This document shows positions 2,773 to 2,930 of a stretch of DNA of 3,576 nucleotides, in pieces. The notes beneath the pieces are model-generated. The model searched no databases. It saw only the letters and a list, made by a program, of their open reading frames with translations, and was not told the origin of the DNA. Position 1 is the stretch's first letter; every line of letters starts with the position of its first letter. The stretch comes from Escherichia phage ECO95 1-6-1: sequence record OR845313.1, one strand, 5' to 3'. A program made the position numbers and the translations under genes.

Positions 2773-2795
2773 ATACGCTTTCCTTGATTTACCGG

Positions 2796-2813
2796 GAGAG
2801 ATAATATTCTCTC
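2796..2813 (-). promoter_or_regulatory. Perfect dyad GAGAGA-N6-TCTCTC in the AT-rich spacer upstream of the tail operon; candidate regulator binding site overlapping a possible -10 element (TATTAT on the minus strand, 2806..2801)
   Basis: Seen: + strand 2796-2813 gagaga-taatat-tctctc, with perfectly complementary 6-bp arms. It sits 24-41 nt upstream of the gp37-like ATG in a 126-bp AT-rich non-coding spacer (2773..2898) that follows a terminator. The only -10-like hexamer (TATTAT) lies inside the dyad and I find no good -35 at 16-18 bp spacing, which would fit an activator-dependent or operator-controlled late promoter. Promoter position and function are inference. Confidence 0.3.
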
Positions 2814-2898
2814 TTCGTTATCGTTCAGACGTATTTTGATGTATCAGGCATCAGGAATCTTTTAATCTCCTTTAGAGAAAAAAGTTAAAACAAATAAC

Positions 2899-2928
2899 AA
2901 ATCCCCGGCGTATAAACGGCGGGGATTT
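2899..2928 (-). terminator. Rho-independent terminator immediately after the lysis-gene pair
   Basis: Seen: 9-bp stem AAATCCCCG (2899-2907) / CGGGGATTT (2920-2928), with 2 further inner base pairs possible, starting 2 nt after the TAA stop of the 104-aa ORF. On the minus-strand transcript it is followed by a U-rich tract (GUUAUUUGUUUUAACUUUUUU). Confidence 0.5.
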
Positions 2929-2930
2929 GT

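Follow-up and report, generated by a model that had tools for sequence, protein, structure and literature searches.

In the 3,576-nucleotide stretch of Escherichia phage ECO95 1-6-1 (sequence record OR845313.1), which as a whole is called the window in this report, a spacer of 158 bp (positions 2930 to 2773) lies between lysis and tail genes. The window is part of a tail-only element known in Salmonella as STM4196-STM4219 (LT2 numbering). We consider it probable that the spacer is a terminator-promoter junction derived from a Mu-like phage of the Bcepmuvirus type, that it contains a Mor-dependent tail promoter, and that an inverted repeat within it, GAGAGA-N6-TCTCTC, is a part of the tail leader and not an operator. 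From sequence comparison, the tail operon very probably has a Mor-dependent promoter of its own. The initial annotation of this DNA had proposed that the tail operon is a separate, regulated transcription unit and that the dyad serves as the operator of a dimeric regulator. The former part stands, since the spacer holds a conserved promoter of the activator type, and the tail genes are very probably a separate regulated unit; the operator part fails because the dyad neither recurs nor is conserved in homologous loci.

Element and sequences compared

The head-less element is about 19 kb long; in Salmonella as in E. coli it is flanked by yjbD and lysC, and it is also present in Phytobacter. It encodes a holin, a transglycosylase and a membrane protein, P2-like tail, baseplate and fibre genes, and one divergent Mor-family activator gene. 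Salmonella enterica sequences match the window with 95-100% identity, and a locus about 80% identical to it is found in 198 out of the 5426 complete genomes of E. coli (about 4%). The nearest true phages are Bcepmuvirus members such as PhiKM, for which the gp37 identity is 37%. The Mor-family gene lies outside the window, upstream of the holin gene and divergent from it (orthologue of STM4219; PF08765, E = 1.3e-39), and its product shares 46% identity with C, the late activator of PhiKM.

The following sequences have been used for the comparison: a 43.5-kb Salmonella locus 95% identical to the window (L001), the locus of E. coli IAI39 (L002), the PhiKM genome (L096), and 23 distinct homologous spacers from Salmonella, E. 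coli, Phytobacter and metagenomes, which were aligned. The spacers came from annotated genomes, a scan of genome contigs (one locus, Phytobacter), a scan of metagenomes (nine loci) and IMG/VR, the last of which gave most of the comparative power. Among the Mu-like prophage loci L027-L085, only L051 extended to the protease promoter. Because every long open reading frame (ORF) of the window is on the minus strand, the spacer is read from right to left, and features on this strand are given in that direction.

A probable activator-type promoter

The predicted promoter begins twelve bases after the terminator with a tract of six T followed by C (2883 to 2877, minus strand), which would occupy -58 to -52 and is invariant in nearly all of the 23 variants. 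It is followed by a 16-bp imperfect dyad, TCTAA-AGGAGA-TTAAA (2876 to 2861, minus strand; -51 to -36), the predicted site of the Mor-family activator. Four of the five arm positions of this box are complementary in the window and all five in Phytobacter (TTTAA-N6-TTAAA), and across the 23 variants the box reads [T/C][C/T]TAA-N6-TTAAA, with the arms kept and the N6 variable. A -10-like hexamer, CAAAAT (2838 to 2833, minus strand), falls at -13 to -8; in 23 of 23 variants CA[AGT][AT]AT is present exactly 22 nucleotides past the box without any indel, and A2 and T6 are invariant. The 22 nucleotides between box and hexamer have a constant length, while only 5 to 14 of 20 positions are identical between lineages. 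This combination of constant length and near-random sequence is as expected if the distance from an activator site to a -10 element is constrained. Downstream of the hexamer, the start codon follows after 45 to 61 nucleotides, depending on the variant. The initial annotation had regarded TATTAT, within the GAGAGA-N6-TCTCTC dyad, as the only -10-like hexamer of the spacer; this needs to be corrected, since CAAAAT keeps A2 and T6 in every homologue and the E. coli orthologues have no TATTAT.

At the -35 position the sequence is AAGATT, with two of six matches, and a sigma-70 scan gave no full promoter in the spacer. From the geometry, the transcription start of the tail operon is predicted at 2826 or 2825 (minus strand), giving a leader of 53 nucleotides; the box numbering of -51 to -36 and its centre at -43.5 depend on this predicted start. 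The leader opens with a block, GAACGATAACGAAG (2826 to 2813, minus strand), which is kept in all lineages as GAAC..T..CG.AG and is recognisable in the PhiKM protease leader as CAACATAACGCGG. Near its end is the Shine-Dalgarno sequence of the gp37-family gene, AAGGAAAG (2785 to 2778, minus strand), of which AAGG is kept in all variants. Two other candidates in this region were rejected. An alternative register with ATTAA (2866-2862) as the left arm would place GAACGA, with no T at position 6, as the hexamer, and a mini-ORF of eight codons, which follows AAGGAG (2871-2866), is not kept in E. coli.

In the Mu middle promoter Pm, Mor binds a 16-bp site composed of two 5-bp inverted repeats around a hexanucleotide and centred at -43.5 (Ma and Howe, PMC4390567). 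An A/T region at -57 to -52, GTAAAC in Table 3 of that paper, is contacted by RNA polymerase through the C-terminal domain of its alpha subunit and is required for full activity, with C preferred at -52, and the promoter has a -10 and no -35 (PMC4390567). When the numbering of Table 3 is laid on the Mu sequence, AGTAA-AGCCGG-TTAAT falls at -51 to -36 and TATCCT at -13 to -8. The frames of the window and of Mu Pm thus agree to the base pair, and the box centre is 31 nucleotides before the hexamer in both.

Recurrence of the box in the element and in PhiKM

The core that Mu Pm and the spacer have in common, TAAA-N5-TTAAW, was searched on both strands. In the 43.5-kb Salmonella locus there are three matches, all of them at the operon starts of holin, gp37 and gpW, and three of the four matches in the E. 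coli locus are at the same sites. In the complete PhiKM genome there are two matches, against 0.18 expected, and these lie upstream of the head-maturation protease gene and of gpW. Every box on the gene strand, in the element and in PhiKM, has a hexamer with A2 and T6 22 nucleotides later. At gpW the site is CTTAA-AGCGCT-TTAAT or TCTAA-ATCGCT-TTAAT, followed after 22 nucleotides by GAAAAT; this site played no part in the design of the pattern, and a terminator hairpin precedes the E. coli copy too. The PhiKM lysis promoter has the same frame, with C replacing A in the spacer.

The box of the PhiKM protease promoter, TCTAA-AGCAGA-TTAAA, is identical to the box of the tail promoter in several lineages, and CAAACT follows it after 22 nucleotides. 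The two promoter regions align through the hexamer into the leader. The position of the PhiKM protease promoter is that of Mu's C-dependent P_I. The matching box and the alignment indicate that the tail promoter is very probably an ancestral late promoter of the P_I type, that is, a head-gene promoter which, as judged from the sequences, was very probably left reading into gp37 after the head genes had been lost.

A first linking motif, TTTTTT..AAAG..ATTAAA, was discarded, as it had been built after both copies had been seen and aligned non-equivalent arms; the Mu-derived frame was used instead. A loose scan for the architecture was useful only in exposing the gpW site.

At the gpW promoter (L001 11067-11017, minus strand; L002 14298-14248, minus strand; L096 17222-17274), the ATG of gpW is exactly 7 nucleotides past the -10-like hexamer and has no Shine-Dalgarno sequence in Salmonella, E. 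coli and PhiKM, so a leaderless gpW mRNA is predicted.

Terminator hairpin

The stop codon TAA of the last lysis gene, an ORF of 104 amino acids, is at 2933-2931. As the initial annotation had described, a 9-bp stem (AAATCCCCG/CGGGGATTT; 2928-2920 and 2907-2899) begins 2 nucleotides past the stop. The complete hairpin (2931 to 2896, minus strand) has 12+3 bp, with a G+C core, CCCCG.CCG/CGC.CGGGG, extended by AACAAA/TTTGTT. Directly 3' of the stem is a U-rich tract (2902 to 2887, minus strand), which is ATTTGTTATTTGTTTT in the window, ATTTTTTATTTG in most Salmonella and ATTTTTTAT in most homologues. The folding energy of the whole 181-nucleotide region is -48 kcal/mol (z = -4.7 relative to shuffles). 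The hairpin is found in all lineages except E. coli type 2, with energies of -14 to -28 kcal/mol, although its stem sequences vary between lineages (CCCCG.CCG, CCCCACC, CCTCGTCG, CCCCACCCTTA). In the alignment 88.7% of cells are paired, compared with 41-66% in slid controls, and two pairs are altered on both sides in a compensatory manner (GC<->AU and GC<->UG/CG). Since all of these changes map to one Salmonella/E. coli split, the independent compensatory events are few. The hairpin is a conserved structure of the intrinsic-terminator kind, as had been suggested, with termination and its efficiency being predicted. A simple terminator scan did not list it, probably on account of the internal mismatch and the loop size. 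An Rfam scan gave only sub-threshold matches at chance level (26 bits, 47-49 being required), which were set off by this hairpin.

In the E. coli type-2 spacer (L005, about 1560-1680; L014, L015, L025, L088), the hairpin and the U-tract are cleanly lost, with about 44 nucleotides missing.

This variant bears on another explanation, in which the spacer has no internal promoter at all and the tail genes are transcribed from the holin promoter by read-through of a leaky terminator. The T-tract and the TAA-N6-TTA block would then be used otherwise, for example as downstream context of the terminator, for DNA curvature or as an RNA element. We regard this as quite unlikely. Type 2 has lost the terminator and kept everything else, so read-through appears to be tolerated, and CAAAAT is a weak hexamer. 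However, the same type-2 variant keeps the box and the hexamer intact, and read-through does not account for the strict box-to-hexamer spacing across divergent intervening sequence or for a frame identical to that of Mu Pm. Moreover, the architecture recurs at other operon starts of the element and of PhiKM, including that of the first late gene, where there is no upstream transcript to terminate.

GAGAGA-N6-TCTCTC dyad

The dyad (2796-2813) is perfect and has TATTAT (2806-2801) in its loop, and it lies in a spacer that is AT-rich after the hairpin (33% G+C, compared with 51% for the window); these points of the initial annotation were confirmed. It is also correct that the dyad does not resemble a LexA box, and no CTGT-N8-ACAG was found in the window with one mismatch allowed. 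In the predicted leader the dyad would occupy about +13 to +30, in an indel hotspot, and could form an RNA hairpin of -7.3 kcal/mol. The Shine-Dalgarno sequence follows about 11 nucleotides downstream, and the conserved hexamer is 20 nucleotides upstream. While the exact motif is expected only 0.03 times per window, a perfect 6-bp inverted repeat with a loop of 3-12 nucleotides occurs in 31% of shuffles of the 123-nucleotide spacer (4.5% for a loop of exactly 6), so the dyad by itself is not beyond chance.

Further copies of the motif, which would be expected upstream of other late operons if it were an operator, were searched for, and there are none in the 43.5-kb Salmonella locus or in the E. 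coli locus. Neither E. coli type 1 nor type 2 has the dyad (about 190 orthologous elements of E. coli), and the PhiKM promoter region lacks it as well. In type 1, 14-15 nucleotides are missing exactly at its position. On the Salmonella side, variant dyads are GGAGAG-N10-CTCTCC (L090), GGAGA-N10-TCTCC (L012/L087) and CGGAGA-N11-TCTCCG (Phytobacter), and one Salmonella-group variant (L011) has an uncompensated arm mismatch. The arm spacing is N6 in Salmonella and N10, N11 or N12 elsewhere, which is a misfit with one rigid dimeric regulator.

In E. coli type 2, an insertion of 14 nucleotides unrelated to the dyad, GCGTTAACGAATCA, is present at the dyad position and resembles a diverged tandem copy of CGATAACGAAGTGAG.

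These data make it very improbable that the dyad is the operator of a dimeric regulator which overlaps a -10 TATTAT and gates a promoter inside the dyad. The perfect 6-N6-6 symmetry with TATTAT in the loop invites such a reading, and the GAGA/TCTC dyad does persist in Salmonella, L090, L012/L087 and Phytobacter in spite of heavily diverged neutral neighbours. But in addition to the missing second copy, the absence from E. coli elements and PhiKM, the varying arm spacing and the frequency in shuffles, TATTAT is not kept even where the dyad persists (loops AATAAGTCG and GGAAATGTGAT), a -35 and an activator site in register are lacking, and the conserved promoter features lie upstream. The element has no repressor gene, its only annotated regulator being the Mor-family activator; a host-encoded cognate factor is conceivable. 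The dyad was rejected as a Mor binding site too, since a centre at -43.5 would place the start at about 2761, inside the gp37 ORF. A comparison by eye with consensus sequences of host regulators (CRP, ArgR, RcsB, IHF, CpxR, and CsrA/Hfq motifs) gave no match that was consistent between lineages.

It is possible, if somewhat unlikely, that the dyad is a functionless quasi-palindrome, which arose by a small insertion or template switch in an indel-prone leader and drifts neutrally in one clade. The segment between the GAAC...GAAG block and the Shine-Dalgarno sequence is an indel hotspot that differs among E. coli type 1, type 2 and the Salmonella clade. The PhiKM leader is without the dyad, elements lacking it look otherwise intact, the arm mismatch of L011 is uncompensated, and the chance expectation is the 31% given above. 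On the other hand, the (G)GAGA/TCTC(C) arms and their complementarity persist among lineages in which gp37 is only 60-68% identical and the spacers from -35 to -14 only 25-40% identical. Such persistence of the arms while neighbouring neutral sites have heavily diverged suggests purifying selection on them.

The dyad may also be a roadblock operator at +13 to +30, on which an unknown protein, from a host or a prophage of the Salmonella clade, would add repression on top of Mor activation; this we find improbable. In its favor, the arm sequences are conserved and do not covary, the register 2797-2814 is an 18-bp palindrome with one mismatched pair, and the gene-strand TCTCTC hexamers of the Salmonella element are all intergenic, with three of them beside the three predicted promoters. 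But the five lineages differ in the outer GAGA/TCTC spacing (10, 10, 10, 11 and 12 bp). The TCTCTC copies are not dyads, are at differing promoter positions (about -7 to +1, -34 to -28 and +25 to +30) and have no E. coli counterpart, and no candidate regulator is known.

The hexamers in question are at 6301, 11045, 22797 and 24174/24176 on the plus strand of L001, all intergenic within the element and none coding. They adjoin the holin, gp37 and gpW promoters and the last stop codon of the element; in the E. coli element these places lack the hexamer. Their intergenic placing could be chance.

Another minor possibility, also of low probability, is that a domesticated phage late promoter carries the hairpin or dyad as a regulatory add-on specific to the clade, which would be either an RNA switch or the site of a GA/TC-specific factor. 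In the former version the pyrimidine arm would pair alternatively with the Shine-Dalgarno sequence, as the minimum free energy fold of the Phytobacter leader suggests; in the latter the factor would also touch the TCTCTC motifs that adjoin the two other promoters in the Salmonella element. If true, the add-on would be a second, Mor-independent host brake on tail production.

An RNA role can be put forward only with caution, because the dyad arms show no covariation and the leaders fold unremarkably. Our ranking of the roles of the dyad is accordingly a tentative one: a modulatory hairpin in the leader RNA comes first, as a possibility somewhat short of an even chance, neutrality is second, a DNA site such as a roadblock is third and unlikely, and any other role is last and less likely still.

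Proposed regulation and its meaning

A perfect LexA box, TACTGTATATATATACAGT, is present between the Mor-family and holin genes, outside the window (L001 24486-24504), and also in E. coli and Phytobacter (L004, about 24-42, and L003, about 1213-1231). This suggests that the whole element is under SOS control. In the mechanism that we propose, DNA damage would lift LexA from this box, and the Mor-family activator (the STM4219 orthologue) would then be made. The activator would bind nnTAA-N6-TTAAw boxes centred at -43.5 and recruit sigma-70 RNA polymerase as Mor does at Mu Pm, so that lysis, tail and baseplate/fibre genes would be served by three activator-dependent promoters without a -35. The terminator (2931-2887) would end the transcript of the holin, transglycosylase and membrane protein genes and insulate it from the tail transcript, and by this insulation, we propose, the two modules can be dosed independently. 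The dyad would be a clade-specific addition to the leader and, if active, would most likely act as a small RNA hairpin that modulates translation initiation or stability of the tail mRNA.

Several points weigh against this proposal. The literature searched contained no transcript 5' end, footprint or reporter data for the element, and no regulatory data were found in the literature mentioning STM4213-4219. CAAAAT is a weak -10, and a profile made from the tail-promoter block alone failed to recover the block upstream of holin, where the frame ATTAA-AGCCCT-TTTCG was picked post hoc and has a poor right arm. The loose architecture scan was unspecific, with about 11 matches per locus against 4 expected. 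E. coli type 2 lacks the terminator, and termination at this place is therefore dispensable. Finally, the leaders fold no better than shuffles (z from -1.3 to +1.4), with no covariation of the dyad arms.

The proposal provides a testable regulatory map for a widespread and unstudied tail-only (tailocin-like) element, in which a LexA box would control one Mor/C-family activator, and this in turn three box-dependent promoters separated by terminators. The map replaces the operator hypothesis. It also offers nnTAA-N6-TTAAw, centred at -43.5, as a candidate recognition sequence for the late activator of Bcepmuvirus-type phages, and points to the reuse of a head-gene promoter for tail genes upon head loss.

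All three genera carry a further conserved block, TTAAA-N6-TTAAAAATCAA, in the DNA that separates the LexA box from the holin promoter (L001 24420-24377, minus strand; L004, about 98-117; L003, about 1297-1316). It was among the sequences meeting the loose architecture scan, and the sequence downstream of it is not conserved. It may be a part of the Mor-gene promoter on the opposite strand.

Neighbouring genes

Along the direction of transcription, the window contains a partial SLT-type transglycosylase gene, the gene of the 104-amino-acid membrane protein, the spacer, the Gp37-family gene, an ORF of 65 amino acids, and the genes of tail sheath, tail tube and tail assembly chaperone. The membrane protein (3245 to 2931, minus strand; PHROG 462) is the last product of the lysis cassette, after holin and the SLT transglycosylase. 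Its identity to the last protein of the PhiKM lysis cassette is 50%, and no Pfam family was matched. The label "releasin-like" given to it initially is not supported by the sequence, BLASTP showing no similarity to Mu gp25. In PhiKM, the transglycosylase gene and the last lysis gene are separated by a gene for a 216-amino-acid "putative lipoprotein". Such a gene is lacking in the elements of Salmonella and E. coli, and therefore no spanin is evident in their lysis cassettes.

The Gp37-family gene (2772 to 2317, minus strand; PF09646, E = 1e-43) is the first of the tail operon. In GenBank AFYI01000007 (L001 22317-22712) it is annotated from an internal ATG with 131 amino acids, while the 151-amino-acid ORF, with the N-terminus METLS... 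and the Shine-Dalgarno sequence, is kept in all homologues and is the form annotated in E. coli RefSeq. One IMG/VR "viral contig" (L006 1-130) has gp37 behind a T7 promoter, a lac operator and a pET-type ribosome-binding site and is a cloning-vector construct.

Two insertions were observed in the element. Inside the Salmonella tail module, between gpV and gpW (L001 11181-14016), there is a gtrABC-type operon for O-antigen glucosylation, composed of GtrA-like, bactoprenol glucosyltransferase and membrane protein genes, which is not present in the E. coli element. In E. coli IAI39 (L002 24476-26233), an ISEc53 transposase gene and a ClbS/DfsB-family gene are located between the holin and Mor-family genes and part the activator gene and the LexA-box region from the lysis promoter.

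Comparison with known systems

The hairpin resembles canonical intrinsic (Rho-independent) terminators in having a G+C-rich stem right after the stop codon and a U-rich tail and in being kept in evolution with compensatory changes; as in such terminators, an upstream A-tract gives it a bidirectional look. It differs from them in that the U-tract of the window is interrupted (UUUGUUAUUUG).

Like the R-type tailocins, of which the R-pyocins of P. aeruginosa with PrtN/PrtR are an example, the element is a chromosomal, head-less cluster for a contractile tail. Further points shared with R-pyocin clusters are a lysis cassette of its own, a positive regulator dedicated to the cluster, and a connection with the SOS response, which here is the LexA box. 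Unlike in R-pyocins, the activator is of the Mor/C family and not PrtN, the ancestry is a Mu-like transposable phage with P2-like tail genes, and the lysis genes are a separate upstream unit closed by the terminator.

With the late promoters of Bcepmuvirus (PhiKM, BcepMu family), namely those of the head protease (P_I-type), gpW and lysis, the element shares the box and the frame. In the phage the first of these promoters drives head genes, whereas the element has lost the head genes, and its promoter leads directly into gp37; the PhiKM leader is also without the GAGAGA hairpin of the window. No description of these late promoters was found in the literature searched, nor of the promoters of the tail-only lineage, the candidate box or the reuse of the head promoter.

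Punctuation by a terminator followed by a late promoter, and activation of the Mor/C type, are textbook Mu biology. As at Mu Pm, a Mor/C-family activator is encoded by the element, and the predicted promoter has a 16-bp dyad at -51 to -36 (arms of 5 bp around a spacer of 6 bp), an A/T tract bearing C at -52 (TTTTTTC here), a hexamer at -13 to -8, no -35, and a terminator hairpin that adjoins it upstream or overlaps it. At Mu Pm the terminator overlaps the Mor site, while here it ends 12-20 nucleotides upstream of the box. Unlike in Mu, the activator of the element shares only about 38% identity with Mu C in the helix-turn-helix region, G/C richness of the box spacer is seen at the gpW promoter (AGCGCT) but not at this one, and there is apparently one activator in place of the Mor-to-C cascade. 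What is new is the lineage, a tail-only element derived from Bcepmuvirus, together with the candidate box and the reuse of a head promoter; the general principles are unchanged, and the Mu Pm paradigm is extended to this element.

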